Part shown: positions 1-56,692 of the stretch, piece by piece
Numbering within the stretch: position 1 is the first letter of the stretch
Layout of the letters: the number at the start of each line of letters is the position of its first letter
Assembly (NCBI GenBank): GCA_938083015.1
Contig: CALKCX010000010.1
Coordinates: forward strand, 1-56,692
DNA: 56,692 bases
From: an uncultured Candidatus Micrarchaeota archaeon
GTDB taxonomy: Archaea; Micrarchaeota; Micrarchaeia; Anstonellales; J096
Direction of reading: 5' to 3'
The notes under the pieces: model-generated
Told to the model about the DNA's origin: nothing
What the model saw: only the letters and a program-made list of their open reading frames with translations
Databases searched by the model: none
Made by a program: the position numbers and the translations under genes

Positions 1-3000
1 AGCAATACTTGGTAATACAAAAAGATTTAAATATCGAATATTATTTTTGAAAACCAATATATTGGCGTTATCATTTAGGCCTATCGTGACTTTTAAATTA
101 TCTTGAACTTCATTACATCCTTGAAAATCTGGTAGTAAATATGAGACTAATTTACACGAATCACTTGGTGTCGTGTAGTTAAATCTATATAATTTAATAC
201 TTTCACAGGAAGGGTTGTTGATATATTTACAACTTGCCTTTATCAAATGTTTAGATAGAGGTAAAAAATAAGTTTTCGTAGAATTATTATATGCTAAGAA
301 AACGTCCAATACTTCTATATCGTTTTCTAATCTACATTCTGCACTTTCCCCTATATTATAGTCGAATTTTAATTTAAGTACATTCCCATATATATCTCCG
401 GATAAAGATATTTTTATATCACATTTCGAAGATATATTTTCATCATATATTAAACAACCTTGTTTATGTAATTTACATTGACTAACATTTGTTTCAATTT
501 GTCCTTCTAATATTAGATAGCGATCAACATTTAGATTTAATCTATCTCTTAATAATCTATTAAATTCTCTATCTATCAACATATTATTATTTGCATATAA
601 TTTGAAAATCGAATTGTTTATACTAGAATATGATCTATAATTTAATTCAAATGTCGATGAGTTTATTATAAGACATCTATCTCTAGGTAAATTCCAAGAA
701 AGTTCTAATTCACAAGATATATTGGTCGAAGGTGTAGAGCTGTTCTGAGAAACTATATAGACTTTTCTTTCAATATACCTATTACATTCTCTGTTATCTG
801 GGTTATAGCAATATAAAACTAAAGTTGAATTATTTGTGAATTCGTAATTAAATATCCAATTTATTACCGAGCTATTTGAAAAGTTTAATACGTAATTATT
901 TATAGAGTGTATACAATGTAAATTAGAATTAGAACTGATGTTTATATTATAAGATATATTAGTAGCTTGCTCTAGTATTGCACTGGGCATATTTTCTAAT
1001 ATATCTATTCTACATTCTCTGGGCGGAACAATGCTAATATTTCTAACATATAACAGTTTATGCAAATTCAAACCACATTGCCTATTTAAAGTATTTGAGC
1101 AATCTAAACTATGTATATAGTGGCCATAATCATAATATTGATCTCTAAACATTCTAAATATATTAGAACCGTTTTGCAAGAATATTGTAAGGTTGTTTAT
1201 CGAATATCTGCATTCTAGCTCAAGATCAGAAGTAATATTTATGTAATAATCCACATAAAATGGAGATGAATAAGTACCAGAGGGAATATTATCATAAGCT
1301 TGAATAGTACAATTAACTATAGGAGGCTCATATATTTCATCAATTATATAAAGAGATTTAGCTACATATCTATTACAATAAGGGTTAGTTAAGGATTTAC
1401 AGATTAAGAAAAAAGATGTATTACTGTTAAATATTCTATTAACAAAATTCCTGCTGATAAAGCTTCCAGTATCTATATATGCAAGTACGCCATTTTCATA
1501 CATTTTACATTCTAAATTTGTATTCGAACTTATATTATAAGAATAGTTTGAGATAAAGCTATTATTATATGTGCCCCATGGTATGCTTTCTTCAATATCG
1601 ATATCACAAGAACCCGGAGCTTCTATTCTAGTTTCAATGAAAAGATTACTTTCAATATTTTGACTACATTGTCTATCGATCTGATTACATATTATAGAAA
1701 AACTATAATTACCTAAATCAAAATTTAATAATTTTGAAAAGCTTATATGTTTGCCCGTTCCCCTATACAAAACATCATTGTTCATTGATATGGTACAAGT
1801 TAGATTATTATCAGAAGAAGCTGTTAAGTATATAACATCTTGATAAGGCGAAGTATAAGTTCCTGATGGAAGATGATAATCCATATTGATATTACATCGT
1901 TCTGGAGGATTTGTTTGATTTGTTTTTATTATTAGAGTAGAAGAATAAGAAGAAATACATGAATTCTTTCTACAATTAAGTTGAAAGTTATACGTGCCAA
2001 CATCAAAAAATCTCGTATAGATATATTGGCCAATTGATATTTGAGATGACAATATTGGGTTATTGTTTATTATAAGATTACAAGTAGATTGATCATAAGA
2101 TATGAAACCAAAAGATAGATTGGCAGGCGATTCTAATTCACCAGATGGTAAAATAGGAATTATATTTATATTGCATGTATCGTCTAAAACTTCTAAATGA
2201 GAGCTAATAGATTTATAACATTGATTGTTAAAAACATCTCTACAGATTAGATTAAAAGAGTAATTATCAGGTGTGAAGAATAGCTCTCTTTGAAAATTGA
2301 TGTTATTACCAATCGAACTATAGTATTGATTGCCATTAATATTCAAATCACATCTTATTTGATTATTTGAACTTGCAAATATAGATAAATTGTAAGTATT
2401 ATTGTAACCTTTACCATTTGGTAAATAAGCTATTAAGTCTATTTCACATTTAGGAGATGGATTGATTACGTCAAAACATTTTATATCTGTATCTATGCAT
2501 TGTCCGTCTTCAGATACTATATCAGCATGAATGTAATACCTACCAGTAGTTAGATTAAACATTAGTGTGTCACTATAGGTTCTATTTTCATCTAAAAATA
2601 TATTCAATAATTCCTGATTATTTAAATATAATCTTAGATTAGAAGATCTGTTTAATGTGTATGCATTTAAAGATATTGGCAATCTATTGGTATTGTATGT
2701 AATACAGCTATTTGGATCGCCGTTTATTCTTATTTTATTTTCACAAGTTCTTTGAGACTTTTTAACATATATCGTGCTTTGATATATAGGGCATTCATCG
2801 TCTACTTCGCCATTAGGTTCAGAGCAATATAATGTTAATCTATATCTACCAGGTTTATTAAATTCTATTTGTTCTAGAATTTGAGAATTTGGATAAGATA
2901 ATATAGTGTGTACGCGATTATCAATTAGTAAAAAACATTTACTATAATTTCCATTTATTATAGCTGATAAGTTAAGATATGCAGGACTTCGCATATATAT

Positions 3001-4146
3001 TGTAATATTGGAATCTGGTCCCATGTTTTGTCCATTTAGAATAAATGATTCGATATTATAACTACATGATCGAGGATTGGATTGTTTATATATTAAACAT
3101 ATTCTATCTGTATCAGTAGATGTGCTTTGTCCACAGTAATTTGTACTATATGCCATAGTTTCCAAATTAATAATATTATAACCTGGTTCTAATCTAACTG
3201 TTTGTGTACTGTATGAATATCCACTAGTTAGTCGACTATCTAATATATGTTCACCTTGCTCATTGATATTTGATAATATATATAGACCGTTATCTTTTAT
3301 AAAAGTCGCATAATTTACAGTATGTTGAGATTCTGTAGTGACTTTACAATCTTTATTTTCAAATATTACAGATCTTGCCTCTGAATCTGGAAGATATGGA
3401 CAGTTTGGAGTTGAAGATCTAGGTGGAAGTGACGGTATTGTCAAAGAACAAGATTGAAACAAACTTGTTAAACTAAGAGGATCGACAAAATCTGCTTGAA
3501 AAGATTTAGAAGCTATATCGATTATATCGAGTAACATCACATCTATTGTATTATAACAAATTTTTGTCGTATATCCTCCTGTTCCAGCAAAACCGTTTGT
3601 AAATAGACCTATCTGATTAAACATTACCCAAGTATTTGAAGATATCCAATTTAACGAATAACCTCTCCCTACAGCTATACCTATCGTGTTATCGTATATT
3701 CTAACATCTTTTGTAAACAATCTTTTATTACTATCCATTAATGCCAATCCTTGACCACTTACCAGTCCACTTTTAAAACCAGCAATAGATATATTTTCTA
3801 ACGTTATATCTTCTACTCCTCCTCTTACTTGTATACCGTAATAACCAGATTCATAATATGGATATATCCCACCATTCTTAATTGTAATTTTACCTTTATC
3901 TTCACCAGTTACAATAATTCCAAAAGTTCCATAAATGTCGAAATTTTTTAAATCAAGAACACAACTTTCACCATATTTTAAATGTATAAAAAAATCAAAC
4001 AAAATATTATTAGTACCAATTCTAGTAACATAATGAGGAAAACAGTTATCAACTATTCTTTGAGCAACTTCACATGACATTATAACTGGTCTATAACACT
4101 CAATTCCCCAACTTGTTATAAACAGGAAGATTAATAATAGCAGCAT
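1..4146 (-). CDS. Large secreted Cys-rich surface protein, N-terminal beta-helix-like region plus >=10 Ig-like repeats (3'-truncated by window edge, >=1382 aa)
   Basis: Not in the ORF track. I translated the minus frame by hand from ATG 4146 to base 1 and found no stop. Starts MLLLLIFLFITSWGIEC (signal peptide). TTTAAA box at 4170-4175. Beta-helix-like segments (VLDLKNFDIYG..GIIV, ITIKNGGI, VRIYDNTIGIAV), then ~95-aa repeats such as RCNINMDYHLPSGTYTSP...LTCTISMNN...DLGNYSFSIICNQIDRQC. Confidence 0.9.
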   Translation of the reverse strand, partial: MLLLLIFLFITSWGIECYRPVIMSCEVAQRIVDNCFPHYVTRIGTNNILFDFFIHLKYGESCVLDLKNFDIYGTFGIIVTGEDKGKITIKNGGIYPYYESGYYGIQVRGGVEDITLENISIAGFKSGLVSGQGLALMDSNKRLFTKDVRIYDNTIGIAVGRGYSLNWISSNTWVMFNQIGLFTNGFAGTGGYTTKICYNTIDVMLLDIIDIASKSFQADFVDPLSLTSLFQSCSLTIPSLPPRSSTPNCPYLPDSEARSVIFENKDCKVTTESQHTVNYATFIKDNGLYILSNINEQGEHILDSRLTSGYSYSTQTVRLEPGYNIINLETMAYSTNYCGQSTSTDTDRICLIYKQSNPRSCSYNIESFILNGQNMGPDSNITIYMRSPAYLNLSAIINGNYSKCFLLIDNRVHTILSYPNSQILEQIEFNKPGRYRLTLYCSEPNGEVDDECPIYQSTIYVKKSQRTCENKIRINGDPNSCITYNTNRLPISLNAYTLNRSSNLRLYLNNQELLNIFLDENRTYSDTLMFNLTTGRYYIHADIVSEDGQCIDTDIKCFDVINPSPKCEIDLIAYLPNGKGYNNTYNLSIFASSNNQIRCDLNINGNQYYSSIGNNINFQRELFFTPDNYSFNLICRDVFNNQCYKSISSHLEVLDDTCNINIIPILPSGELESPANLSFGFISYDQSTCNLIINNNPILSSQISIGQYIYTRFFDVGTYNFQLNCRKNSCISSYSSTLIIKTNQTNPPERCNINMDYHLPSGTYTSPYQDVIYLTASSDNNLTCTISMNNDVLYRGTGKHISFSKLLNFDLGNYSFSIICNQIDRQCSQNIESNLFIETRIEAPGSCDIDIEESIPWGTYNNSFISNYSYNISSNTNLECKMYENGVLAYIDTGSFISRNFVNRIFNSNTSFFLICKSLTNPYCNRYVAKSLYIIDEIYEPPIVNCTIQAYDNIPSGTYSSPFYVDYYINITSDLELECRYSINNLTIFLQNGSNIFRMFRDQYYDYGHYIHSLDCSNTLNRQCGLNLHKLLYVRNISIVPPRECRIDILENMPSAILEQATNISYNINISSNSNLHCIHSINNYVLNFSNSSVINWIFNYEFTNNSTLVLYCYNPDNRECNRYIERKVYIVSQNSSTPSTNISCELELSWNLPRDRCLIINSSTFELNYRSYSSINNSIFKLYANNNMLIDREFNRLLRDRLNLNVDRYLILEGQIETNVSQCKLHKQGCLIYDENISSKCDIKISLSGDIYGNVLKLKFDYNIGESAECRLENDIEVLDVFLAYNNSTKTYFLPLSKHLIKASCKYINNPSCESIKLYRFNYTTPSDSCKLVSYLLPDFQGCNEVQDNLKVTIGLNDNANILVFKNNIRYLNLFVLPSIA

Positions 4147-4169
4147 TAATATTTTAATAACGTTTTAGT

Positions 4170-4175
4170 TTTAAA
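4170..4175 (-). promoter_or_regulatory. TATA box (TTTAAA) for the large surface protein gene
   Basis: Lies 24-29 nt upstream of ATG 4146, the same spacing seen at many other genes here (leaderless). Confidence 0.55.
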
Positions 4176-4186
4176 ACATAACTTTT

Positions 4187-5077
4187 TTACAATTCTACTT
4201 TTTCACCAGGTATTCTAGGAAATGGTTGTACTTCAGATATTTTATTTACACCTGTTATCCACATCACAAACCTCTCTATACCTAATCCGGCCCCTGCCGA
4301 AGGTCTTAATTTACCTTCTTTAGCTAGATTCAATAAAACATCGTATTTATCTTTATTTATACCATCTTTATCCATTTTAGCTATTAGTTTATCATATTGA
4401 TATTCTCTTTGACCTCCAGATAGAATCTCGCCGTATTTTGGTACATAAAGATCATAATTATGCCATACTCCTTGTTCATCTTGCATATCATAGAAATATC
4501 TTGGAATATCAATTATCCAACTTGGCGAATCTATAGTTTCGATAAACTTTGTTTCCCATTCATCTCCATATTTTTTGACCAAATCTCCATATTTATATTC
4601 TTTAAATGGAGGTTTTGGTATTTTAAAACCAGGATTTAAATTTTTTATTTCTAAATTCATATCTATCTTTATATATCTTAAAGCTGCCATTATTAATTTC
4701 TCTATAAATCTTCTTGCCTCAACATCATTGAAATTAGCTATTTCAAAATCAAGTTGAGTAAATTCAAATAGGTGTTTACCCGTATTTTTCCTACTTTCTC
4801 TCTCGATTCTTATATTAGGTGATAATATGAATAACCTATCTATGTTTTGAGCTATCATGTATTGTTTATGTACTATCATACTTTGAGTTAAAGTTAATTT
4901 CTGACCGTATACTTCTACTTCTAATCCTTTTTCAACAGATCCAGAAGGGTCAGGGAAAAGCGGATCTGTTGTCTTAGATAAGATAACAGGTAATACCCAT
5001 ACAAATCCTTGCTTATGAAGATAATTTACCATTCTAGTTAAAACATAAGATTGTATAGTCAATATCTCTTTCTTCAT
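4187..5077 (-). CDS. asnA: Archaeal asparagine synthetase A (AsnRS-like, no anticodon-binding domain)
   Basis: Class II aaRS motifs (SPNIRIE..HLFEFTQLDFE; EILSGGQRE; GAGLGIERFVMW..QPFPR) in 296 aa with no N-terminal OB domain. Confidence 0.85.
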   Translation of the reverse strand: MKKEILTIQSYVLTRMVNYLHKQGFVWVLPVILSKTTDPLFPDPSGSVEKGLEVEVYGQKLTLTQSMIVHKQYMIAQNIDRLFILSPNIRIERESRKNTGKHLFEFTQLDFEIANFNDVEARRFIEKLIMAALRYIKIDMNLEIKNLNPGFKIPKPPFKEYKYGDLVKKYGDEWETKFIETIDSPSWIIDIPRYFYDMQDEQGVWHNYDLYVPKYGEILSGGQREYQYDKLIAKMDKDGINKDKYDVLLNLAKEGKLRPSAGAGLGIERFVMWITGVNKISEVQPFPRIPGEKVEL

Positions 5078-6247: not shown

Positions 6248-7587
6248 CCTACAGACCCTTCCATTTCTAAAGATATTAATCTATTTAATTCAATAGCGTA
6301 TTCTAAAGGTATTTCTTTTATAAATTCTTCTATAAATCCTAATACTATCATGGTCTTTGCCTCATCTTCATCAAACCCTCTAGACATTAGATAAGATAAC
6401 TGTTCTTGCTCTATTTTACCTACAGTAGCTTCATGAGTTATTTGAACATCTTTTTCATGAATTTCAATATAAGGATAGGTGTCTGTTCTACTTTTAGGAT
6501 CGAGTAATAAAGCATCACACGATACAGCTATTTTACTATTATAAGCTCCTTTAGCAACCTTCACCCAACCTCTATATCTTGTTATACCACCACCCATTGA
6601 TATGCTCTTTGATACTATTGTTGAACTTGTATCTGGAGCAAGATGTATTGCCTTACCTCCGCTGTCAATTAATTGATCTTTACCTGCTGATGCTATCGAT
6701 ATTATCTTGGCCTTAGCTCCTCTTTCTTTTAGATATATGGCCGGGTATTTATAAGTGTACTTTGAACCTAAATTCCCGTCTAACCATTCTACATAAGCGT
6801 TTTCATATGCGATTGCCCTTTTAGTAACAAGATTATAAACATTTTTACTCCAGTTTTGTACAGTAGTATATCTTACTCTAGAATTTTTATGAGCAAATAC
6901 TTCAACTACTGCTGCATGAAGAGAATTTTTACTATATATAGGTGCAGAACATCCTTCTATATATGATACTTCTGCTTGATCTTCTACTATAATTAATGTT
7001 CTTTCAAATTGTCCCATTGATTGGTTTTGTATTCTAAAATAAGCTTGTAAAGGTCTATCTACTTTGACTCCTTTAGGTACGTATAGAAATACTCCACCAC
7101 TCCAAAAAGCTGTATTTAAAGCAGCAAACTTATTATCTCGAATAGATACTAAGGTGGCAAAATACTTTTTAACAATATCTGGATGTTTTTTCAATCCTTC
7201 GTCAAGACTTGTAAATATAACCCCCATTTTAGATAGAGTATTTTGTATTTTCTCATATAAAACGTTACTTTCATATTGGGCAGTTACACCTGCTAATACT
7301 TTTGCCTCTGCTTCTGGAATACCTAATTCTTGATATATTTTTCTCACATCTTCTGGTAGATCTTCCCAATTATTAACTCTATTGGCTTTAGGTTTTAGAT
7401 AATAAACAATATCATCATAATCTATAGGTTCTAATTCTACCCATTTAGGTAATTCTAAGTTTTTAAAATGTTGAAAAGCTTTCAATCTTATGTTTAACAT
7501 CCACTCTGGTTCTTCTTTCTCTTTACTTATGAACTTAACAGCTTCTTCACTTAATCCTTTATCCCATATAGCTTCATAATCTATCAT
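6244..7587 (-). CDS. sufB: Fe-S cluster assembly protein SufB
   Basis: GQFERTLII, YIEGCSAP, SLHAAVVE, RYTTVQNWS, DTYPYIE, HEATVGKI..YLMSRG. Confidence 0.95.
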   Translation of the reverse strand: MIDYEAIWDKGLSEEAVKFISKEKEEPEWMLNIRLKAFQHFKNLELPKWVELEPIDYDDIVYYLKPKANRVNNWEDLPEDVRKIYQELGIPEAEAKVLAGVTAQYESNVLYEKIQNTLSKMGVIFTSLDEGLKKHPDIVKKYFATLVSIRDNKFAALNTAFWSGGVFLYVPKGVKVDRPLQAYFRIQNQSMGQFERTLIIVEDQAEVSYIEGCSAPIYSKNSLHAAVVEVFAHKNSRVRYTTVQNWSKNVYNLVTKRAIAYENAYVEWLDGNLGSKYTYKYPAIYLKERGAKAKIISIASAGKDQLIDSGGKAIHLAPDTSSTIVSKSISMGGGITRYRGWVKVAKGAYNSKIAVSCDALLLDPKSRTDTYPYIEIHEKDVQITHEATVGKIEQEQLSYLMSRGFDEDEAKTMIVLGFIEEFIKEIPLEYAIELNRLISLEMEGSVG

Positions 7588-8165
7588 TTTTTAAACACAC
7601 CTTTAATTACATCTAATAATCTATTCTTATCTAGTTTATTTGCACAGTATAATGTTTTAATTTTTATCTTTTCATCATCTCTATTAAACAAAGATAGACC
7701 TTTAAATACATAGAATACCTTACCAGTCTTAATGTATTCTTCATATATAATATCGAATTTCTCAGAATGGAAGTTTTGACAATGAGGACATATAGGACTG
7801 GAAAATTCTATTAACCAGATCTCTGCATTAGGATTTCCTAGAGAGATATCATCAGGTTGATATAATCTTGTATCTTTAGAACCTATTGGATTGTTTAAAG
7901 CATTTTTGAAAACCATTATATCTCGATTTCCGACTAATTTATCTTGATTTATAATAAAAGACGGTGTCCCCGTTATATTATATATTCTGGCCTCTTCTTT
8001 AATTCTATTAATGTATTGATCTGCTTGTTCTGAGTTTATACAATCTTCGAATTCAATAGGATATTCGGTATTTGAAGGTATTATTGACATTATATACCAA
8101 AGACCGTATATGAATATTATCATAAATAATACTCCGCCAATGATCATTGTTATATCTAGCTTCAT
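7584..8165 (-). CDS. Membrane-anchored DsbA/BdbD-like thioredoxin-fold protein, circularly permuted
   Basis: N-terminal TM helix. The GTPSFIIN cis-Pro segment comes before DDISLGNPNAEIWLIEFSSPICPHC. Confidence 0.8.
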   Translation of the reverse strand: MKLDITMIIGGVLFMIIFIYGLWYIMSIIPSNTEYPIEFEDCINSEQADQYINRIKEEARIYNITGTPSFIINQDKLVGNRDIMVFKNALNNPIGSKDTRLYQPDDISLGNPNAEIWLIEFSSPICPHCQNFHSEKFDIIYEEYIKTGKVFYVFKGLSLFNRDDEKIKIKTLYCANKLDKNRLLDVIKGVFKK

Positions 8166-43029: not shown

Positions 43030-46000
43030 TTATTCTTCGCATCTCAACACGAATCTTGAAACACACCAATCAGCATCGTATGTTTCATAGAAAACTATAT
43101 CGTATATTGGTGAAAAAGTAACTGTTCTATTTCTTTCGTTAGGGTAGATATTCCCCCAATGATAAGTACAATTATCATCTCTTATAATAGCTGCCACAGA
43201 AACATCATTTACATTTACATTATATAATACTGGTTCGCATCTACAATTACTACTAAAATCAAAAAGGCCCGATCCATAATCTTGATAACATCTTACTTCA
43301 TATATATTTTGAGTATAAGGTATAGGTATATTTTGAGTGGTATTTGTTCTTAATCTTAAGTTATTATAACCTCCTTCGGAAGCTGCACTACAATTATCTA
43401 AATTTAGACTAATACTAGTAGTATTACCAAATCCTATTGTTCGATATCCTGGTGAAACCATACAACTCTCTTGAATAATCCATGGATTCTCAAATCTACC
43501 TTCAAAAACTCCGAAACCTGATAATGTCAATGTAAAGTTTCTGTGAATACATTGCTCAGGGCTATGGGGTTCTTCATTAATTGTAAGAAGCGATATTTGT
43601 GAAGTTACAGTTCCTCGAATATTAGATATTCTACCTTCTTTATAACATGTTGCTGGTTTACAAAAACTTTCTAATCTATAGCTACAATTAGCCGGTAAGC
43701 ACATCATATTGGTTCTATTATTATATCTATATTCGACAAAATCGAACATTCTATTTCCGATTTCATCGTATATTACAGGATTTGCACCCTTTATATACTG
43801 TTTTGCAAGTTTATAAGTCAAAAACCTACCATCTGGAGCTCTTATACATATGGTTTTATCATTATAATAGTTAGACGTAGCTATTTCTAAGCTATACCTA
43901 GCAAAGTTATTTCTATTGATTAAAACATTATATGTAGGGAAAATATCACCAGTTCTTACCTGAGGTACAGGATCTGGAATACATGTTATAGGTTGATTGT
44001 ATTGCTCATCAACAACATAACTACATTCTGATCTGTTTTCTGTTTGATATAAAACTGGAAGTCTTGCAAAACTACTTAATACAGATCTAGATAATTCCAT
44101 ACTACTTGAATAAGCGTTATTTTTTAACATGAAATCCTTCATATTACCTATATGTATTCCCATTACTCCATGACCAGATAGATTATGGCTATGGTTTACC
44201 AATAAATCTACAAATTCTTTTGCATAATTACTACTTCCATTTATATATAAATAAATTGGCATGCCCCCGCTTCTTTTATTTATATCTTTTAAAACCGATA
44301 TTAGTAAATTTATATCTGGGGCATTGTTTACTGTTACTATATAAAACAATATATCTTCTTGCGGAGAAGGTTTATTATTATTTACACCAGGACAACTTAA
44401 AAGATTATTATTCGATATATCTTCAGTTCTTGTATTATAATCAGGAACATGATAACTTATATTGCCACTTCCTATATTCATATTTCTCATAGTGGTTATT
44501 AAACAAGTAGGACATATAGATTTTAGTGTATTATAAGAATTACTTTCACCAAAAATACCCCCACCAAATAATGGATTACTTCTAACTAATATTACGCTAC
44601 CTATAGGAGATGCAGAATATTTTATAAATGGTCTAGGTATTCTCTCATTAGCTAGTATAAACACATCTACTTCACGTAATACTTTTTTAAGATAATCAAT
44701 AGGCACGTAATCTATGAACATTATAACTTGTCTTCCTTCCATCAAGTATTTAGTAACATCTCTTGTAAATGGGTAATGCTTATAAAGTCCATATTGATAA
44801 TCTCTTCTAATTACGAAAAGCAGTTCTCCATCAAGACTTCTATTCATAGCTACTGTACCTTGATAACAACCTATTAATCTACCAAAATCATCAAAGGCAA
44901 AACTAGCGTATTCGTATTTTTGCTTTGACGGACTAGAATATGTATATGTTCCTCCATAATTCGTATCTGGTTTTGCACAAGCATATTTAGCAATTTTTAT
45001 ATTATCCGTACTCTTACCACTATATTCTATTTGATTAGGCATGTTAAATAAAGTTACAGCTATAGAGTTTAAAGAAGGATTAGGGGGCACAGGTAGTCCA
45101 AATATTCTAATATCTAAATCTAAAAACTCTTGCGTAGTATTATTTACAGTCTTATTAACTCTTATACCTTTACAATCTCCATAATTACCATTACCATCCT
45201 CTATTAATATAACTACTTTTTTCAAATAAGTAATATCATCAAATTGAAATTCGTATCTTTTAAATGTAATATTCCACAATTCTTCATTTCTATTAGGACA
45301 ACCAGCTCCACCAGTTATGGCGTCACAAACTAAAATTTCATTATTGTTTCCACTAAAACAAGCTTTTTTCAATGTATAATTGTTAAAATCTAAATTATCA
45401 TTAACTGGAATAACTACCGCGTTTCTACCTTTAAACTTTATTGTCTTTCTAGGTATAAACTCAGGACTTTCAAATACATTGGTACGATTGTAAGTAAGAC
45501 TAGGCTTTACTTCAGAACCTACTTTTAAATTAAGCATAGGTCCTTGATAATTATAGTATGCATAACATGTTACAGGATCACACCAACAATCCAAAGATTG
45601 ATTATTTGAAGCATTTATACAAGTATACCTAGCATAGTATTCTACAGAACAAGTACCACCACTTGAACTATAATCTTCATAAATACATTCAAAAGGAAGA
45701 CCTGTAAAATTGTAATATCTATTCATATATCTATCAAATCTCTGGATAAGGGGTCTTGATGTATTATCTGGACTAAAACCAAATCTTTGATAGTATCTTT
45801 TAGCTATCTCTTGCATAATATACATTGGGTATTCCTCTTCTATAAATATTTCAGATAATGTCATGTTAAACGTCAGAGTTGTAGTAATTCTAGAAGAAGT
45901 GCAAAACGTAATTAAAAATCCTCCTTGACTATATTTGGTCAAGTTTAAATCTTGAAGTTTTAAAATAAAATTATATTTTACTCTATATATGTTTTTACCA

Positions 46001-47121
46001 TTTACATTGCGTATATACTCATAACTTATATTGCCAGTTTCTACAAACGCAGTATAATTACCAGGGTTTAACACAAAGCTTTCTCTAAATCCAAATCCAA
46101 GACCTATTCCGAGAAAACAACCTGTCATAAGGCCCCCTCCTGTGGTTAGAGAAGATTGATTTAAGTAAATCTTATGAAAGAAATTTGGATGAGAAGGTTG
46201 GGCAAAAGTTTTAAACAGTCCTACAGGGTATCTTTCGCTAATCCTATCTAGACTAGCAATGATAATTAAAAGTCTATAAAAGTTTTGATCATTTAATATC
46301 TTGGCCGTATCATCATATACGCTATATATGTATTCGTATCCATATGATTTATTGTATTTTGATCTGTAAAAAGATTCCATGGATTCTCTACCAGTATTGG
46401 GCATCTCACACATCAATAGACAGCTTTCCCAAGTTTCGTATTCTCTACCAGCACACGTATATTTAGTATTATTTAATTCACATCTTCTCTCTGCTTCAGG
46501 AACTATATTATAGAAAATAGGGTTTAGACCTTCCATACCTTGATAATCTCTATCAAATGGGTAAAAGTATTTATAATGTTCATATTCTAATATAGAATCA
46601 CCAACTCCAAATTTAGTACCGTATATGTTAAATTTATCCATATCGTATTTACCGACAAACTTTCTAGATAATGTTCCATAGAGAAGATTGAACGGAGTCT
46701 TTTGCTTTAATTCTTCTCCTTGATCTGCAGGTAACGTGTTATTAAACATGAATTTTTGTATTAAAAAATCATAATTTACCTTCTGATTTCCCGTATACTT
46801 ATCGTATACTAACATCGTAAATCCTGTTTTACAATTATCTATATTTGCGTATCTACAATAAGGAATATCTACTCTAGCTGATAAACCATTTATTGATAAA
46901 TTAGTATTGTAACATAATCTAGCTAAATCTGAACAACTGCCATCGCTTATCTGCATTGACACTACTTGATTATTCGTAACATTTCTTAACTCGACACATC
47001 TTCCATCTGTTATGTTTTGACAACATATATCTCTAATAATAAAACTTGACTGATTTTGTAAACAACCAGATAATATTATTAATATTATAACAATCTTAAG
47101 AACTGTATAGGGGCCCCCCAT
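43030..47121 (-). CDS. Large Cys-rich secreted lipoprotein-like surface protein (1363 aa)
   Basis: IVIILIILSG|C lipobox; many Cys and NxS/T sequons; strong SD GGAGGT (47130-47135) 8 nt before the ATG. Confidence 0.85.
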   Translation of the reverse strand: MGGPYTVLKIVIILIILSGCLQNQSSFIIRDICCQNITDGRCVELRNVTNNQVVSMQISDGSCSDLARLCYNTNLSINGLSARVDIPYCRYANIDNCKTGFTMLVYDKYTGNQKVNYDFLIQKFMFNNTLPADQGEELKQKTPFNLLYGTLSRKFVGKYDMDKFNIYGTKFGVGDSILEYEHYKYFYPFDRDYQGMEGLNPIFYNIVPEAERRCELNNTKYTCAGREYETWESCLLMCEMPNTGRESMESFYRSKYNKSYGYEYIYSVYDDTAKILNDQNFYRLLIIIASLDRISERYPVGLFKTFAQPSHPNFFHKIYLNQSSLTTGGGLMTGCFLGIGLGFGFRESFVLNPGNYTAFVETGNISYEYIRNVNGKNIYRVKYNFILKLQDLNLTKYSQGGFLITFCTSSRITTTLTFNMTLSEIFIEEEYPMYIMQEIAKRYYQRFGFSPDNTSRPLIQRFDRYMNRYYNFTGLPFECIYEDYSSSGGTCSVEYYARYTCINASNNQSLDCWCDPVTCYAYYNYQGPMLNLKVGSEVKPSLTYNRTNVFESPEFIPRKTIKFKGRNAVVIPVNDNLDFNNYTLKKACFSGNNNEILVCDAITGGAGCPNRNEELWNITFKRYEFQFDDITYLKKVVILIEDGNGNYGDCKGIRVNKTVNNTTQEFLDLDIRIFGLPVPPNPSLNSIAVTLFNMPNQIEYSGKSTDNIKIAKYACAKPDTNYGGTYTYSSPSKQKYEYASFAFDDFGRLIGCYQGTVAMNRSLDGELLFVIRRDYQYGLYKHYPFTRDVTKYLMEGRQVIMFIDYVPIDYLKKVLREVDVFILANERIPRPFIKYSASPIGSVILVRSNPLFGGGIFGESNSYNTLKSICPTCLITTMRNMNIGSGNISYHVPDYNTRTEDISNNNLLSCPGVNNNKPSPQEDILFYIVTVNNAPDINLLISVLKDINKRSGGMPIYLYINGSSNYAKEFVDLLVNHSHNLSGHGVMGIHIGNMKDFMLKNNAYSSSMELSRSVLSSFARLPVLYQTENRSECSYVVDEQYNQPITCIPDPVPQVRTGDIFPTYNVLINRNNFARYSLEIATSNYYNDKTICIRAPDGRFLTYKLAKQYIKGANPVIYDEIGNRMFDFVEYRYNNRTNMMCLPANCSYRLESFCKPATCYKEGRISNIRGTVTSQISLLTINEEPHSPEQCIHRNFTLTLSGFGVFEGRFENPWIIQESCMVSPGYRTIGFGNTTSISLNLDNCSAASEGGYNNLRLRTNTTQNIPIPYTQNIYEVRCYQDYGSGLFDFSSNCRCEPVLYNVNVNDVSVAAIIRDDNCTYHWGNIYPNERNRTVTFSPIYDIVFYETYDADWCVSRFVLRCEE

Positions 47122-49234: not shown

Positions 49235-50395
49235 CTACGCCACCCTAGCTATATACGATAATACGAATGGACTAACATCTATTCCTAATAATTGATTAAT
49301 ACCTACTGTTATCGATATCGTTGCTAATAAAGATAACCCAAGAGATAAGATTATTAACATAGAGTATACGCTAAATCCTATTATCATAGAATTAGAATCT
49401 GATATCTCTGATAAGATGTTTAAAAACATACCTTTAAAGCTCTCTAATGTAAGATCTTTACAATTAGTCGGATATGCTCTAATATCTGTTAATTCTGCTA
49501 TTTTATTAGAAGCATTTACTGCCATAGTAGATGCATTAAAATCATTGTATGTTAAGGTAATTACGTTTAAAAAGAATACCGATAGTATAGGTAACATACT
49601 CATAGCTATAGAGAAAGATATCATAAAGCTGCCGACTTTTCTAGTTAACTTGACCATTCTTAATATTCCGCCTATACCGAAGAATCCAACTATAAATATT
49701 GGATAAACACTAGAACTAAACATCTCTCTAAACATGTATATTATCGATCTATATTGATTGATCTGAGATAATAAAGTATTTACATTATCGTATATTAAAC
49801 TAAAATGTCTACATGGCATATAAGAAAATCCACTAGATAAACCAGGATTTAATTCAGATAAGTCTTTTTTTATTTCATCTAAAGGTAGTCCAATATCGTT
49901 TATTTTTGCTTGATCAGGTATAGTATTACTACCACCTAATATTCCAGGTAGATCATTATAGAGAGCGTCAACAGCAATACTACCAAATATAAAATATCTT
50001 CTCGAGCTTAACGATATTTTTAACAATCTATCCAAGTTATCTTTAACCCTATCTCCAGCTACAGACATATAGCTCATATTCAAATAATTCTCAAAAGATC
50101 TATTTAGATAAATTTCTCTATCAACAGGATTATCACATGCTATGTTTTCGCCCAGAATATTATTTATCAATACTCCGCATGTAAACGTTTGTATAGGATT
50201 GGTAACCAAGTAACTAACTACTCCGATTAAAAGTATAGATATGGCAATTTCTACAATTTCTTCTTTCGAAGTCTGTTCCATCTCTTTTATACTAAACATT
50301 TTACCCAATGCTAATAGTATAAACATAAACAATCCTGCTATAACTATAGTTATTCCCAATACAGTATACAAAGTACTACCAAATTCTGGTATCAT
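49235..50395 (-). CDS. CedA/VirB6-like membrane protein, paralog 4
   Basis: ALGKMFSIKEMEQTSKEEIVEI hairpin; GGILRMVKLTRKVGSFMISFSIAMSMLP; C-terminal TM ..QLLG. Confidence 0.7.
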   Translation of the reverse strand: MIPEFGSTLYTVLGITIVIAGLFMFILLALGKMFSIKEMEQTSKEEIVEIAISILLIGVVSYLVTNPIQTFTCGVLINNILGENIACDNPVDREIYLNRSFENYLNMSYMSVAGDRVKDNLDRLLKISLSSRRYFIFGSIAVDALYNDLPGILGGSNTIPDQAKINDIGLPLDEIKKDLSELNPGLSSGFSYMPCRHFSLIYDNVNTLLSQINQYRSIIYMFREMFSSSVYPIFIVGFFGIGGILRMVKLTRKVGSFMISFSIAMSMLPILSVFFLNVITLTYNDFNASTMAVNASNKIAELTDIRAYPTNCKDLTLESFKGMFLNILSEISDSNSMIIGFSVYSMLIILSLGLSLLATISITVGINQLLGIDVSPFVLSYIARVA

Positions 50396-53031
50396 TATCT
50401 CACCTTACCTATTCCAGGTAAGAATATCTCTCCGCCCAGATATTCTGATAAAGTTATTATAGCTACAAATGTTATAAATATAGCTATTAAAGGTAAAGTT
50501 ATCATTCTAAATACAGCAGCACCGACATAGGAAAATAGATGATTATGGTTTTCAAACATGTTTAATTCTACACATCCAGAACAATCTGGAGAAGGAGGGA
50601 ATCTAAGTAAATCTGGGTTTACACTAGTAGCTAAACTGCAATCTTGACTATTTGGATATATAGGTAAATATACTTTTGATAGATATGTTATCATTACACT
50701 TAGCTCTGTATTAGTGGTTTCAAAGTAATTTTGTCTAATATTTCTCCAGATTCTTGAAGGTAGTTCCTCAGTCTTATACATATAGGTATTATTGCATGTC
50801 GTAACTCTAGGACACATGTTTGATCCAGAATACTTACATTCCATACCAAAATCTTCATTTGGATTACATATACCATATGCCCAGTATGGTGTATTGGCAG
50901 CATGTTTAAGATCTTTTATAGTCTGATCTAAAGCGTTACCTACGATTTCAGAGCATCCAGCTAATTTTACTATTTCATCTGTACTTATATCTGATCTAGC
51001 ACCTTTTTTTATATTCATGACTGTTTGAAGAGAATTAAAACAGTTTGTTCTCCATATGTTACCAAACCTATCTTTCCAACCTTTAAAGTTACCGTCGTTA
51101 TTTACATCTATGTTATTGTAATTATTTATAACATATTGATAGAATCTATCTCTAAACATATTTACTATCTGTTCTTCAGAAGTTGTAAATCCTGTTTGAT
51201 TGTAAACATCTATAAATATTAGAAAATCATTTGAAATTTCGTGTTGAGGTTTGATATTGTTTCTTATATTCAAAGCTTTATTTCCTCTAGGCGTATCGTA
51301 TTGATTATTTATTTCCTCTACTAAAGTAGTATTGTTTATACTTGGACTCTCTATAGCTGTGTAGATCTTTTTTATACTATTATTAAGATCTTGATCATAG
51401 CAATATGGATTAGCTACTGTATACATAGCTCCACATGTTATCAATATTTTGGCATTCCATACATTCTTGATACTATTGTTTATAATGTCACTAACAACAT
51501 TTTTAAAAAACGTATCATTTTTTAGCATATTTGCAAATTCTTTTGTGTACTCTCCGCCCTGGCCTCTATTTAAAAGATCCAATATACTTCTTGGATTTCC
51601 ATTTTGAATCAATTCTATTTCTTCTTCAGTAAAAGTGCCCCATACTATTTTATTATAATATCCTCTACATGATAAAGGACAATACAAATTGTAATCCTCT
51701 CTATACGGTCTAAGAGGTAATAATTTAGTACAATTAGTTTCCCTTATATAATCTCTTAACCTTATAGTATTTCCATTTGCCAATCTAATGGTATTATCTA
51801 AGACACTTAAATCATACATAATATTAAAGCAAGATCCATTCGATAAATCGTATAGATTAGAACATGCTGATGAGCTAAAGTAACATATAGGTATATCTAT
51901 AGGATATGGGATTTTTCTACATATCTTTGGACAAGTATTCATTCTTATACCTAAATCTCTAGCTTTAATTGATATCTCTGGTGTAACACCATATATAGAT
52001 CCAAGATTATTGTTAAGATATTCACAAGATGTTATCCCGTTTAAAGTCTTTTCATCAAGACCATCTAAAAATCTATTTATTTTTATCAAATCATAAGATT
52101 GAGATAAAATAGAATAGGCTTGTTGATAAGTTAGGCGTTGATTATTATAAGCTACTATTTCAATTCTACATATCTCTGGACATTGGTTTAATGAATAAGT
52201 TAGACCAAAAGATGGAGGAAAAGAATAAAGTAATACGAATAAACCTGGTAATATAAAGAAGAAGCCTATACCTATTGCAAGTAAAGTAGCTCCTAATTTT
52301 CTAAAGAATGGTAAAGGTCTAAGAAATACTCCTATTGAAATAAATATAGGTCCTATTATTTGTATTAGACCAAATGTTAAAGCTGCTATTCCAGATGATA
52401 ATGTTAAAATATACATTCCTAATGTATAATATTGTTCTTCAACAATATATGGGGTGAATCCACCGGCGTATTGTAATCCTAAAGAAGGAATTCCTGGCCA
52501 TTCGAATTTAACACCTTCTCTAACATTGCCCATCTTATATTTTGCAGCAGCTGATTTTACACTCTCTAAAACCATCGTCTTAAAAATATCGAAGTTTTCC
52601 TTTATATTTTCCCTTATGTAATTATAAACACATCCAGTAGAATTACAATCTCTAATAGATGGATTATTTGAAGAAGAGGTGACGCTTATAAATATGATAT
52701 CCATTATATGCATTAAGGCCAATAATCCTAATAATATAACAAATGAAAAAGCGAATTCCTTCATTTCAACATTGGCCATGGCCTTTAATCTAGGAGAATT
52801 CAATAGATCTGCAGAGAAATTCATTAATATGACTAAACTAAATCCTATCAATAATCCGATTACTCCTAATGTAAACCAACCTGGAAGCTCTCCTTGCATT
52901 AGATTTCCTTGTAATATCTCTCCAATATACGGTGTGCCTGATAGATTCCTTAATATTGATTCTATACTACGATTGTATTCTTCCGATACATTTATTCCAA
53001 ATACGTATATTATTAACATAAGATATATCAT
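50395..53031 (-). CDS. CedA/VirB6-like membrane protein, paralog 3, with ~560-aa Cys-rich insertion
   Basis: DLLNSPRLKAMANVEMKEF hairpin; GVFLRPLPFFRKLGATLLAIGIGFFFILP; ..YLGG. ATG 53031 with SD AGGTG preferred to GTG 53040. Confidence 0.75.
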   Translation of the reverse strand: MIYLMLIIYVFGINVSEEYNRSIESILRNLSGTPYIGEILQGNLMQGELPGWFTLGVIGLLIGFSLVILMNFSADLLNSPRLKAMANVEMKEFAFSFVILLGLLALMHIMDIIFISVTSSSNNPSIRDCNSTGCVYNYIRENIKENFDIFKTMVLESVKSAAAKYKMGNVREGVKFEWPGIPSLGLQYAGGFTPYIVEEQYYTLGMYILTLSSGIAALTFGLIQIIGPIFISIGVFLRPLPFFRKLGATLLAIGIGFFFILPGLFVLLYSFPPSFGLTYSLNQCPEICRIEIVAYNNQRLTYQQAYSILSQSYDLIKINRFLDGLDEKTLNGITSCEYLNNNLGSIYGVTPEISIKARDLGIRMNTCPKICRKIPYPIDIPICYFSSSACSNLYDLSNGSCFNIMYDLSVLDNTIRLANGNTIRLRDYIRETNCTKLLPLRPYREDYNLYCPLSCRGYYNKIVWGTFTEEEIELIQNGNPRSILDLLNRGQGGEYTKEFANMLKNDTFFKNVVSDIINNSIKNVWNAKILITCGAMYTVANPYCYDQDLNNSIKKIYTAIESPSINNTTLVEEINNQYDTPRGNKALNIRNNIKPQHEISNDFLIFIDVYNQTGFTTSEEQIVNMFRDRFYQYVINNYNNIDVNNDGNFKGWKDRFGNIWRTNCFNSLQTVMNIKKGARSDISTDEIVKLAGCSEIVGNALDQTIKDLKHAANTPYWAYGICNPNEDFGMECKYSGSNMCPRVTTCNNTYMYKTEELPSRIWRNIRQNYFETTNTELSVMITYLSKVYLPIYPNSQDCSLATSVNPDLLRFPPSPDCSGCVELNMFENHNHLFSYVGAAVFRMITLPLIAIFITFVAIITLSEYLGGEIFLPGIGKVR

Positions 53032-53040
53032 AAACAACAC

Positions 53041-54030
53041 CTATAATGATTCTATAAAATCAAAAGTTTTATAAGCATTCATTGCAAAAGCAGCTACTAC
53101 AGCTAATGATAGATTTGGTAAAGTTATCACCATAAGTTGATATAAACTAACTTTGTAATAAGATAAGTCTGGATTTTTTATGAATATGTTTTCCACATAC
53201 CTTGGATTATATATTCCTTGATCAGCATTAAATATATCTTCAAACCCCCTTAAATATATAGAGTATATAAATGGATATAGTATATGCATGCCTAATCCAA
53301 TAGCTATTAACATATCTCCTGCTTTTTTTAGACCTGGAAACAATCTTATAACAACCCCTCCTATTGCTATACCTGCAAACAACCCATTTCTTATAATTTG
53401 CAATATAAATAGATGAACTTGTAAACCTATATATATTGTTTCTAAGTCTCTAATTATTCTGTTAGTTATAGAATTATATACCATGTATTGTTTATATGGT
53501 AGATAAGTTATTACTGGAAAGATCATCGATTTTGTAATTGCCGATGTAATCAAACTAGGTTGATCTAAACTCATTATTACATATAATATCGTAGCACCTG
53601 TTATTGTAAACGAAACTATAGTAAAGCTATACGGTATGTTAGCTTCTCCTTCTCTCTGGGCCAATCTATCGTATGCCGATAATATATTGCTTAATAACAT
53701 ATCTGTTCTAGATTGTAAAGTATTCATAGAATAATCAAAATAATTACCTATACTTGGATCTATATTTGATTGTAATCTACATAAGAATTCACTAAAACCA
53801 GGTATTGCTAGAAGTATAAATATACTAAAAAGATAGTTTATAGCAGATGCTCTTACAATTATACGCTTTTGTTGATCAGCTATTAAGTAACTATAAATAG
53901 TAAACAATGCAAGTCCAATTAGTATTATGGTTATGATTTGATGAGCAATTCTTATCATATTATTATCTATTTCTAAATTACATGTTGCCGAACTTATAAT
54001 TATTAAGCTAAATACGCTCTTCAATACCAT
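53041..54030 (-). CDS. CedA/VirB6-like membrane protein, paralog 2
   Basis: YLIADQQKRIIVRASAINYL hairpin; GVVIRLFPGLKKAGDMLIAIGLGMHILYP. The ORF-track GTG 54045 is part of SD GGAGGAGGTGA, so ATG 54030 is preferred. Confidence 0.7.
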   Translation of the reverse strand: MVLKSVFSLIIISSATCNLEIDNNMIRIAHQIITIILIGLALFTIYSYLIADQQKRIIVRASAINYLFSIFILLAIPGFSEFLCRLQSNIDPSIGNYFDYSMNTLQSRTDMLLSNILSAYDRLAQREGEANIPYSFTIVSFTITGATILYVIMSLDQPSLITSAITKSMIFPVITYLPYKQYMVYNSITNRIIRDLETIYIGLQVHLFILQIIRNGLFAGIAIGGVVIRLFPGLKKAGDMLIAIGLGMHILYPFIYSIYLRGFEDIFNADQGIYNPRYVENIFIKNPDLSYYKVSLYQLMVITLPNLSLAVVAAFAMNAYKTFDFIESL

Positions 54031-56692
54031 ATAAGAAATAATCACCTCCTCCTAATAAAGATATAGATCGAATAGAAACTATGGCGACTATGAGATTGAT
54101 TAAATAGTATGCTATGTTAATGACATTCATAAATGCTAAATGTATCATCATATTATAACTTAATAAAATATCAAAGGCCTCTATCATTTGATTCGTTCCA
54201 CCAGTACCTACATTATTCATATTCGAAGTCTCAAGACTCCATATAACGGCTATTATCATTTTAATTATTCCATAGGCGATATCTGCGAATACATAGAATA
54301 AAGCTGCTGCTATTGGATATGTAATACCTATTATTTTAGATATTTGTAAGAATATCCAAGAACCGAATTTAAGAAATAGCCATCCAAATTGTAATCTATT
54401 TGCCCATATTGCTATTTCATCTAAATTATTCAATGCCGCAGCTACCTGATTATATATTTCACCTATCTTAGATTCTGCTATTATCAAATTTTGTTCTATA
54501 CCTTGAATAGTATTCAACATTATATTAACGATTATAACAGTAGTTACATTATATAAGAATGGCAATATGAATATCAATGTTATAGCTATACCTAATAGCG
54601 TAGATCCTATTCTCTTAGTAAAAGGTAATATACGTGCTATTAAAGCTAGATATAATAGAAAACCATAAGAATAAGATATTAAAAATTCGACTAGTTTAGT
54701 GTAATAATTTAGATTAAATACTATAGATTGGAATAATCTTACCAGACCTTGTGCATTATTAGCGTATTCATATATCTTTTTATTGAAGTTCTCTCTTTTA
54801 TTTAGTTCTACTACCCATATACTTATAGACCATTCCATAGGACTTATAGATGATAATATAGATGACATTGCGTATATTTTAGCTGCAGTTAAAGTAAGGT
54901 TGTTTAATTTATTCGATAATGCTGAAATGTTGTTTTTAGCTGTTACAAGCATATTTTCTGTCATTCCACAATAGAATGCATTCGAAGCAAATATAATAAG
55001 GAAGAATACAAATAATGTAACTAAATAAGATCTAAATTCTACCTTTGCACCCAATAGTATCTCTTGATTATTAAACAAATTCCCGAACATATATCCTAAT
55101 GCTATTAACAATATACCTATAACAGCTACTGTAACAAAAATATAAAGCATTCTTTGATTGCCATTTGTACCACATTGAAATGTAAATGGGGGCAATTCAA
55201 CATTTTCTTTCTTTCTAAAATCTACCCAATAAGATTCGGCAATATTGTTATTATTATCGCGACATCTAACCATCCATCGATAGTTACCATCATTACCTAA
55301 ATTGACATTTACACCTATATTGCCTGCCGAACCACTGTAAGTTTGACTAACATTATACCCACCTGGACCTTCTAAGATAAATTCACAAAAAACATTATTA
55401 GAACTTTCATCTACATAAGCTATTAGCTGAACATTATTACTATTAACATTTGTTCCAATAGGTGATTTAGGTGTTATCCTTGGGGGCACTCCATCTTGAT
55501 ATCTAAATCTAACTCCAGTAGAATTCTGATTTCCAGCTAGATCTACACAGGTAACATTAAAAGTATAATCTCCGTTATTAACAATATTTACACTTCTTCT
55601 TATAATACTATTCGGAGATGTTTCTGTATTATCAGAATATAAATTAGCTACAATTAAATTGCACGTAAGCTTATTAGGTGATGGTATTAGATCGAATACT
55701 CTTACTTGAAGATCAATAGGAGATGCGTATGTCAAAGATCCTTCATCAGGGTATATTATTGATATCTCTGGTGGAGTAAAATCAACGATAAACACTCTAG
55801 ATTGTGAAGTTCCTGTATTTCTTGGCCCCCTATCTGTACATTGTACAACAATATTGTATAAACCTTCACTTAGATTTGTATATATTCTCTCAATTCTAGA
55901 ATTGTTTCTAACATCATTTATAGTTTCTATAACAAGACCAGTAGCAGTATTGTTTATAATACAATCTAACATATCCACAGGACTATCGTTAACTTCAAAT
56001 GTTATATTTACTGGTTTGATTGTCGTATTATTAGTAGCGAATATAGGTAAAGCTGGTGGCGATAATATATTTATTGTAGCTGTCTGCTCAGTATATCTTC
56101 TTATATCTCGCGTTTCTGTACTATTACGTTTAGTACCTGTAAAAGATGTATTTCTGGTTGTATCCTTACATTCTATAGTAACTCGATGATGGCCCCAAGG
56201 CAATCCTGATATTGTATTGTTAGCACAACCTTGATTACCTGGAAAATGATTTTCTATAAACTTTATATTGTTAATCCGTATTGCACATAATATATCATTA
56301 TTATCGTCATTTACACAATATCTTATATTTATAGAATCATTATAAAAAGGAGAACTAGGTTCTATTACAAGATTTCTTATTTGCGGATTTTCAAAATCAA
56401 AAAGTAAAGGATTAGATCTAATGGATTCGTTGTTTGTGCAGTTTAATTCAGCGTACCCATATCCGGGATCTAAGCCTGAAGGACGTATAGAAATTGAACA
56501 TGAATAAGTTGCCGAGCTATTATTATTGCCATAATCAACACACTGTCCCACCCAAGAACAGCTACCAGGAAAAGATTTTATAGAAACACCGTCTTTTACA
56601 TAGAGTGTGCAAGATAAAGGATCTGGAGGTTGAATGGCATTACAATTTGGTGGCCCATACATACGTTCATTAAAAACGTGCGTAAATTCTCG
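54008..56692 (-). CDS. CedA/VirB6-like membrane protein, paralog 1, with N-terminal Ig-like repeats (probably 5'-truncated by window)
   Basis: Frame stays open above ATG 56662 to the window end (REFTHVFNER-MYG) and there is no signal peptide at that ATG. Ig-like units (DFTPPEISIIYP..GDYTFNVTCVDLAGN), then MFGNLFNNQEILLGAKVEF hairpin and LIARILPFTKRIGSTLLGIAITLIFILP. Confidence 0.8.
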   Translation of the reverse strand, partial: REFTHVFNERMYGPPNCNAIQPPDPLSCTLYVKDGVSIKSFPGSCSWVGQCVDYGNNNSSATYSCSISIRPSGLDPGYGYAELNCTNNESIRSNPLLFDFENPQIRNLVIEPSSPFYNDSINIRYCVNDDNNDILCAIRINNIKFIENHFPGNQGCANNTISGLPWGHHRVTIECKDTTRNTSFTGTKRNSTETRDIRRYTEQTATINILSPPALPIFATNNTTIKPVNITFEVNDSPVDMLDCIINNTATGLVIETINDVRNNSRIERIYTNLSEGLYNIVVQCTDRGPRNTGTSQSRVFIVDFTPPEISIIYPDEGSLTYASPIDLQVRVFDLIPSPNKLTCNLIVANLYSDNTETSPNSIIRRSVNIVNNGDYTFNVTCVDLAGNQNSTGVRFRYQDGVPPRITPKSPIGTNVNSNNVQLIAYVDESSNNVFCEFILEGPGGYNVSQTYSGSAGNIGVNVNLGNDGNYRWMVRCRDNNNNIAESYWVDFRKKENVELPPFTFQCGTNGNQRMLYIFVTVAVIGILLIALGYMFGNLFNNQEILLGAKVEFRSYLVTLFVFFLIIFASNAFYCGMTENMLVTAKNNISALSNKLNNLTLTAAKIYAMSSILSSISPMEWSISIWVVELNKRENFNKKIYEYANNAQGLVRLFQSIVFNLNYYTKLVEFLISYSYGFLLYLALIARILPFTKRIGSTLLGIAITLIFILPFLYNVTTVIIVNIMLNTIQGIEQNLIIAESKIGEIYNQVAAALNNLDEIAIWANRLQFGWLFLKFGSWIFLQISKIIGITYPIAAALFYVFADIAYGIIKMIIAVIWSLETSNMNNVGTGGTNQMIEAFDILLSYNMMIHLAFMNVINIAYYLINLIVAIVSIRSISLLGGGDYFLYGIEERI

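Follow-up and report, generated by a model that had tools for sequence, protein, structure and literature searches.

The low end of the 56,692-nucleotide window (contig CALKCX010000010.1) encodes, on the minus strand, the N-terminal part of a giant cysteine-rich surface protein, read here, with the balance tilted modestly in favour, as a membrane-anchored host-contact (host-recognition) adhesin of about 2,000 residues. Four features together fit this reading: the long stalk carries its head unshielded at the distal end, a membrane anchor is expected, the protein is restricted to one genus, and it diverges more than housekeeping proteins and an S-layer candidate do. On the best reading, a familiar kind of protein, the host-contact adhesin, is represented here by a new sequence family that has a head, a repeat and an anchor of its own. 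The window is the entire contig C10 of a 518-kb, 15-contig, 84%-complete bin (genome G000) of a Micrarchaeota (DPANN) archaeon. Genome sizes in the genus are only 0.5-0.6 Mb, and a DPANN Micrarchaeota genome of about 0.5 Mb fits the host-attached symbiont expected in an earlier note made from the sequence alone.

The minus-strand frame was without a stop for 1382 codons, from the ATG at 4146 to base 1, and ran off the contig end, as first read. With a G+C of about 29%, stops make up about 8% of random codons (about 1 in 12), so that a chance origin of the frame is negligible (about e^-119). The 3' truncation stems from the assembly, since the window is a whole contig. The full-length relatives P0002, P0003 and P0005 (1890-2139 amino acids (aa); 35-43% identical) were colinear with the window protein and ran 550-760 residues beyond the window's end, through extra repeats to a C-terminal transmembrane (TM) helix and a conserved tail domain; because they continue past its end, the window protein is missing about 550-760 residues including its anchor. 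The relatives thus did not show the outcome named beforehand as fatal to the idea, an anchorless protein ending at a stop directly beyond the window. The full-length window protein is expected, by sequence comparison, to be a type I membrane surface protein of about 1,900-2,150 aa, of which the window would hold about the N-terminal two-thirds. The gene and the layout of its product are as follows.

1..4146, minus strand: truncated giant gene, N-terminal 1382 codons (window protein P0001), from the open reading frame (ORF) and the colinear full-length relatives P0002, P0003 and P0005
4099..4146, minus strand: signal-peptide-like hydrophobic N-terminus, residues 1-16, of a segment type kept in four family members
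3442..4098, minus strand: head domain, residues 17-235, from conservation, profiles and a low-confidence model
3361..3441, minus strand: Pro/Ser-rich linker, residues 236-262, including the conserved Cys 249, from the sequence and the family alignment
3019..3360, minus strand: first post-linker beta-rich domain, residues 263-376, with moderate model confidence and weak immunoglobulin-like (Ig-like) Foldseek matches
2458..3018, minus strand: divergent repeats R1 (377-469, Cys pattern xCCC) and R2 (472-563, C2 and C3 both absent), from the repeat hidden Markov model (HMM)
721..2454, minus strand: six canonical four-Cys Ig-like repeats R3-R8 (565-1142), about 92-99 aa each, with short Pro-containing linkers
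151..720, minus strand: repeats R9 (1143-1239) and R10 (1240-1332), from the repeat HMM
1..150, minus strand: first part of repeat R11 (residues 1333-1382), which the contig end truncates

The iterated repeat HMM tiled residues 377-1332 with 10 units of about 92-99 aa and placed a partial eleventh at 1333-1382, in agreement with the at least ten repeats of about 90-100 aa described in the earlier note. The repeat motif (C-x-I-x-I...P-x-G...C...L-x-C...C) was evident in the alignment. The full four-Cys pattern, which most repeats had been said to carry, was present in 7 of the 10 window repeats; R10 had it (CCCC), and R9 kept the outer two positions (CxxC), with other residues at C2 and C3, and had a further, alternative pair of cysteines. 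No repeat signal was found at the DNA level, where only chance matches of 19-29 nucleotides (nt) occurred, so that the claimed DNA-level divergence of the repeats held as well. An HMM seeded from six window repeats only recovered the six orthologous repeats of P0002 (E 1e-15 to 1e-26), and the iterated HMM, built without P0003 and P0005, recovered four canonical repeats in each of these two (E 1e-12 to 1e-18); P0003 was without two of the canonical repeats. Ig-like domains numbered about 11 in the window and about 17 in the full-length relatives. An Ig-like domain is about 4 nm long, and some 17 of them would reach 60-70 nm.

The fold of a single repeat (residues 749-844) was modelled with AlphaFold2 (AF2) from an alignment of 20 paralogous and orthologous repeats. 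The model was all-beta, with a predicted local distance difference test score (pLDDT) of 94.6, and matched Fn3-like CbhA modules, complement MG, titin and other Ig domains of the PDB in Foldseek (TM-score 0.5-0.6, E down to 4e-4); no match was closer than a TM-score of about 0.6. The predicted structure is that of an Ig-like/E-set two-sheet beta-sandwich of about 90-100 aa, which upholds the Ig-like stalk of the earlier proposal. A two-repeat fold based on a tandem-pair alignment was set aside, MAFFT having matched overlapping pairs by identity and not by register. Profiles of Big or PKD type, suggested for the repeats at the outset, failed to identify them: none of the Pfam families Big_x, PKD, CARDB, fn3 and Bact_surface_Ig-like reached threshold, whether the whole protein or 20 repeats taken one by one were searched, and the latter gave scattered signals only (best Rho_GDI, 7e-4; PKD, 0.12). 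The repeat profile had no match among PDB sequences, and the repeat HMM had none in other proteins of the genome or in neighbouring giants. Repeats common to the other Cys-rich giants of the window were ruled out, the repeat HMM being private to this family. The fold class of the repeat is thus ordinary, and its sequence family new and private. The domain at 263-376, only marginally related to the repeat HMM, is probably also Ig-like, as judged from its model.

Cysteine made up 3.7% of the window protein vs a genome median of 0.33%, and Cys totals were even in the full-length members (62, 54 and 54). Over 40 repeats of four proteins, scored in four Cys columns, C2 and C3 were both present 29 times and both absent 7 times, and never occurred singly (0). 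This co-occurrence fits intradomain disulfides, as the proposed Cys stapling would have it, with a C2-C3 bond and therefore C1-C4 as the second pair. A candidate enzyme is encoded 3.4 kb upstream of the giant gene, syntenic in the window and in the relative.

7584..8165, minus strand: DsbA-like, membrane-anchored thiol oxidoreductase (N-terminal TM helix; CPHC active site), from a thioredoxin-fold match and the motif as read

Paired conserved cysteines, export of the protein and the syntenic gene for a CPHC DsbA-like protein mark the repeats as predicted disulfide-stapled domains, and the DsbA-like neighbour likely catalyses the stalk disulfides. This neighbour looks circularly permuted vs the Pfam models: its residues 38-90 matched the C-terminal part of DSBA (profile 138-190), and residues 104-190, with the CPHC motif, the N-terminal part of Thioredoxin_4 (3-86).

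The N-terminal segment was hydrophobic and of signal type, in accordance with the signal peptide called earlier, and was directly followed by a conserved C-[YF]-R-P-x4-C motif. The head behind it (residues 17-235) held the most conserved columns of the protein and, with one position just inside the linker, six conserved cysteines (17, 25, 62, 197, 233, plus 249). An N-terminal helix was predicted, and behind it short beta strands recurred periodically (residues about 62-215); G-[IL]-x-[VLA] was invariant at residues 104, 133, 156 and 180, and strand motifs took the form h-x-h-x-[DN]-N-x-I-G-h at a 22-29-residue periodicity. The autocorrelation of the head exceeded chance to a modest degree only (z = 3.3 at lag 29; z = 2 at lag 22); the best internal self-matches fell at lags 22-29, the best local one was within the null range, and self-comparison of the head profile returned no repeats. 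A Pro/Ser linker (residues about 236-262), with two conserved cysteines, stood where it had been described.

The head is a candidate irregular beta-solenoid, an assignment held to be slightly more probable than its opposite. Of the beta-helix head claimed in the earlier note, the region of GI/I-x-N strands exists at about 62-215, but the fold itself was not established. Should the head be a divergent pectin-lyase-fold (tailspike-like) depolymerase that cuts host S-layer glycans or exopolysaccharide, with the stalk delivering it, the protein would be an enzyme-tipped spike; this is considered unlikely. Its support comes from several signals, all of them below significance. The four-row head profile matched nothing in the PDB sequences except the beta-helix of the phi29 pre-neck appendage (gp12; E = 0.004), and the two-row profile matched none. 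PF12708 (Pect-lyase_RHGA_epim) appeared at E = 0.01 in one of the four family members. When hhalign compared the head with a profile built from 14 true Beta_helix segments of related genomes, 62 columns aligned in PbH1 register (P = 0.005, vs 0.79 for the Ig-repeat control), with a probability of 7%. The AF2 model of residues 16-376 alternated short and long strands every 21-29 residues, and its head strands started at the invariant G-[IL] positions; its pLDDT was, however, only 54.9. In Foldseek, PL3 pectate lyases gave the only alignments of about 200 columns, yet not significantly, nothing in the PDB or BFVD being below E = 0.1 (E at least 0.13). The enzyme-tipped spike is further opposed by the absence of Pfam matches in P0001, Beta_helix PF13229 and NosD included (PF13229 had none in the whole genome), and by a single-coil HMM built from 68 genuine coils, under which the four heads scored no better than 200 shuffles each. 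With at most 5-6 coils, the head would also be short for a catalytic beta-helix, and no catalytic residues could be named in it. Genuine beta-helix domains occurred on giant proteins of related Micrarchaeota in 35 of 41 genomes. The glycan-binding or glycan-lytic action of the head and the rigidity of the stalk, both proposed in the earlier note, are conjectural.

The three full-length relatives ended in one TM helix, basic residues and a conserved domain of about 80 aa ('ELLxEPYV...G-x-PV...TD-x-x-G'). This tail was the best-conserved part of the protein, carried no sequons and no Cys, and gave sub-threshold matches to CarboxypepD_reg (E = 1.2e-5 and 9e-3). The relatives were also tried as archaeosortase substrates (PGF-CTERM/PEF-CTERM) and rejected, there being no such motif before the TM helix and a domain of about 80 aa after it. 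Beyond the position of the window's end, the repeats of the relatives turned Cys-free and very sequon-rich. Over their stalks, NxS/T sequons were enriched 2.5- to 4-fold (z 9.5-13.5), with the reversed motif near expectation, and they avoided the head (one NxS/T in residues 17-235) and the post-TM tail. As far as sequence can indicate, this distribution is consistent with a stalk that is exposed and shielded, a functional tip that is bare and a tail in the cytoplasm.

A 'TM + tail' module of the same kind (TM helix, 1-2 basic residues and a CarboxypepD_reg-like domain of about 60 aa) ended several large proteins, among them a 2033-aa protein at G000 C14:1923-8021 (+). Near-identical fragments of it lay exactly at contig ends (C7:39427-40032 (-), C7:1-279 (+) and C14:21602-21985 (-)), and such copies are the probable cause of those assembly breaks. 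Of 41 related genomes, 30 had the module; its full-length matches were mainly within the genus (5 of the 6 genomes), with others in several further genera. Large surface proteins of the lineage appear to be commonly anchored by it.

Sharing of this anchor with other large proteins of the genome is one point for a structural envelope protein, which would form or brace the cell's own S-layer or sheath without a host-specific role; another is that exported, Ig-like-rich, sequon-rich, C-terminally TM-anchored proteins are typical of archaeal S-layers. Such a role is nevertheless improbable to a marked degree. A single-file chain of about 17 domains would suit a fibre over a lattice, and the family was seen in one genus and in 3 of its 6 bins. 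The genome also has a separate S-layer candidate, PF05123-type, Cys-poor and 871 aa long in a same-genus genome (G005), whose ortholog here is 53-55% identical and split between C1:34532-34987 and C2:8-475, with the middle absent from the bin; the giant diverges faster than this candidate does between same-genus genomes. In the same phylum, sulfur amino acids are almost absent from SLP_Mh of Ca. Micrarchaeum harzensis (about 101 kDa, with PF05123, and widespread in the phylum), and S-layer proteins are said to be nearly devoid of them (10.1101/2021.04.28.441871), vs 3.7% Cys in the giant. SLP_Mh resembles the window protein in being exported and sequon-rich, and differs in that the latter is Cys-rich, genus-restricted and without a match to PF05123 (S_layer_N). 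Assignment of the giant to the SLP_Mh/PF05123 type was rejected on these differences and on the presence of the separate SLP-type ortholog.

The family was genus-restricted and nearly an orphan in sequence, by the searches made. A word-indexed search of 5.8 billion proteins returned one homolog, P0002 (2139 aa, 43% identity, 98% coverage), and further searches of this kind, including one with P0003 as query, returned only P0002 or the query itself. The head profile, run exhaustively against 1.84 billion representatives, had two matches, P0003 (1890 aa) and a 124-aa fragment. A full copy of 1947 aa (P0005, 35% identity to the window protein) was present in a same-genus genome, and one further same-genus genome carried fragments (35-47% identity). 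The gene was not found in the three other genomes of the genus nor in 35 genomes of other genera of the same family and order (41 in total), and contig scans for more members returned only the already-known same-genus contig (WAPD01000007.1). Upstream synteny with the contig of P0002 was complete. Between the window and this relative, the giant was 43% identical and the DsbA-like protein, which diverges as fast, 43.5%, vs 61-84% for the housekeeping neighbours.

In each of the three relatives, the gene directly downstream encoded another giant secreted protein, of 1,459+ to 2,227 aa and without a C-terminal TM helix. These second giants were mutually homologous (E 1e-18 to 1e-49), and two of the relatives had a third giant after them, longer than 3,700 aa and with faint FG-GAP, LamG and CARDB signals. 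The downstream giants were not found in the window's bin.

L002:16456-26420; L004:12910-22876; L010:3-4373 (-): downstream giants in the relatives

The order giant-1 (TM-anchored), giant-2 (secreted, without TM helix) and giant-3 was kept in three relatives of at least two lineages. Together with the homology of giant-2, the conservation of the tail and the recurrence of its module in the genus, this would favour an arm of a multi-protein surface apparatus that works only with the two downstream giants and docks to an envelope machine by its cytoplasmic tail. That idea, an unlikely one, is weakened by the small weight that gene order carries as a sign of a complex when genomes are very compact, by the absence of the downstream genes from the bin, and by the lack of an identified tail partner; it is compatible with the adhesin reading and not exclusive of it. 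A more far-reaching form of it, of low probability, would make the three giants an undescribed host-contact apparatus of hydrothermal-vent Micrarchaeota. In it, the head would be an irregular beta-solenoid of a new kind, by which the host envelope is recognised or cut, and the TM and tail module, common to many large proteins of the lineage, would be a docking or sorting signal that faces the cytoplasm and is read by an envelope machine.

Under the preferred reading of a host-contact adhesin, the protein would be exported by its Sec-type signal segment, after which the membrane-bound CPHC DsbA-like enzyme would put two disulfides in each repeat. The C2-C3 bond would cross the sandwich and the C1-C4 bond tie its ends, giving a heat-stable stalk of some tens of nanometres. 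The stalk would probably be glycan-shielded, to judge from the heavy sequons of the relatives, and the head bare. The TM helix would hold the stalk in the membrane, with the tail on the cytoplasmic side, and the head, carried beyond the cell's own S-layer, would bind a surface structure of the host cell. Rapid divergence would be an adaptation to host surfaces. Co-production with the two further giant secreted proteins downstream is probable.

Several observations weigh against this reading. The head was without a confident fold or family, and the anchor of the window protein had to be taken from the relatives, because its own C-terminus is not in the bin. The sequon excess of the window copy was modest (z 3.1), and its reversed-motif control was high too (38 versus 34). 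No AglB oligosaccharyltransferase was found with Pfam STT3 in any of the 6 genomes of the genus, and it was found in 5 of 21 relatives; either AglB is too divergent in the genus for the Pfam model, or glycosylation differs there. The disulfide pattern rests on co-occurrence, and the absences of C2 and C3 sit at few orthologous positions and therefore reflect few independent events, perhaps only three. No re-oxidant of VKOR type for the DsbA-like protein was found in this genome with Pfam. Finally, the family was seen in only half of the genomes of the genus (3/6), though all of these are fragmented bins.

The continuation of the gene was not found in the bin. The low end of C10 shared no k-mer overlap with any contig, a tblastn search with the C-terminal third of a relative and the two downstream giants had no match, and the tail HMM matched only tails of other proteins and not the window protein's own C-terminus. 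A circular C10 was ruled out, its high end overlapping C9 by 141 nt and not its own start. This overlap (window 56552-56692) was exact and lay at the start of C9; C12 and C8 overlapped alike, so that these contigs could be joined.

A candidate promoter was read in the 40-nt gap between the ATG of the giant and the upstream gene.

4169..4176, minus strand: TTTTAAAA box, candidate archaeal TATA box, from the sequence as read, its centre about 26 nt upstream of the ATG

This box would be the giant gene's own promoter, giving a leaderless mRNA. The upstream neighbours were a 296-aa protein with a class II aminoacyl-tRNA synthetase (aaRS) core, SufD-like and SufB-like proteins, the DsbA/thioredoxin-like protein and topoisomerase VI subunit A, and the genome is archaeal by these genes, including the last. 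The 296-aa protein (window 4187-5077, minus strand) consisted of the class II catalytic core alone (tRNA-synt_2, E = 2e-41), without an anticodon-binding domain; syntenic and conserved in a relative (68% identity), it may be AsnA-type or another enzyme of aaRS-paralog kind. At the opposite end of the contig, three more large, Cys-rich (2.0-3.3%), exported-looking proteins were encoded on the minus strand (window 43030-47121, 50395-53040 and 54008-56662), one of them with weak Big_13 and Y_Y_Y signals. Elsewhere in the genome, a 289-codon open frame (G000 C1:13437-14303 (+)) had 14% cysteine, by far the highest in the genome.

Among known systems, the giants of SPEARE type of Nanohaloarchaeota (SVXNc_0300 and BNXNv_0298) are Ig-repeat, membrane-anchored proteins proposed as host-binding devices (PMC10266531). 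Like the window family, they belong to a DPANN episymbiont, are cell-bound and extracellular, carry long tandem runs of Ig- or fibronectin-like domains, are organism-specific and have been proposed to bind host surfaces. They differ in having 8,900-9,400 aa and a VirB4/TraG-like ATPase domain, whereas the proteins of the window family have about 1,900-2,150 aa, show neither an ATPase nor any other Pfam domain, lack sequence similarity to the SPEARE type, and carry another head and a four-Cys repeat of their own. Membership of the SPEARE-type class (more than 5,000 aa with a VirB4/TraG-like ATPase) was rejected, the relatives having 1,890-2,139 aa and no catalytic Pfam domain. Bacterial fibrillar adhesins with Big, PKD or Fn3 stalks share the distal binding head, the tandem beta-sandwich rod and the anchor at the opposite end. 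In contrast to these, the window repeats matched no Big, PKD, CARDB or fn3 Pfam family, the anchor is a C-terminal TM helix plus tail and not a sortase signal or outer-membrane barrel, and stapling would rely on two Cys pairs per domain in place of isopeptide bonds or calcium. Right-handed parallel beta-helix proteins (PF13229/NosD, phi29 gp12) resembled the head weakly and never significantly, and the canonical 22-aa coil model failed on it.

As predicted from its sequences, the family is a further clear example of disulfide stapling outside the cell, here with a dedicated DsbA-like protein encoded nearby and in a genome of only about 0.5 Mb. Its useful properties are an unshielded head, a confidently predicted stalk domain for construct design, and an anchor module that possibly marks the surface proteins of the lineage. 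The molecular basis of host recognition and attachment in DPANN archaea is largely unknown, and the giant protein is a concrete, testable candidate for it.

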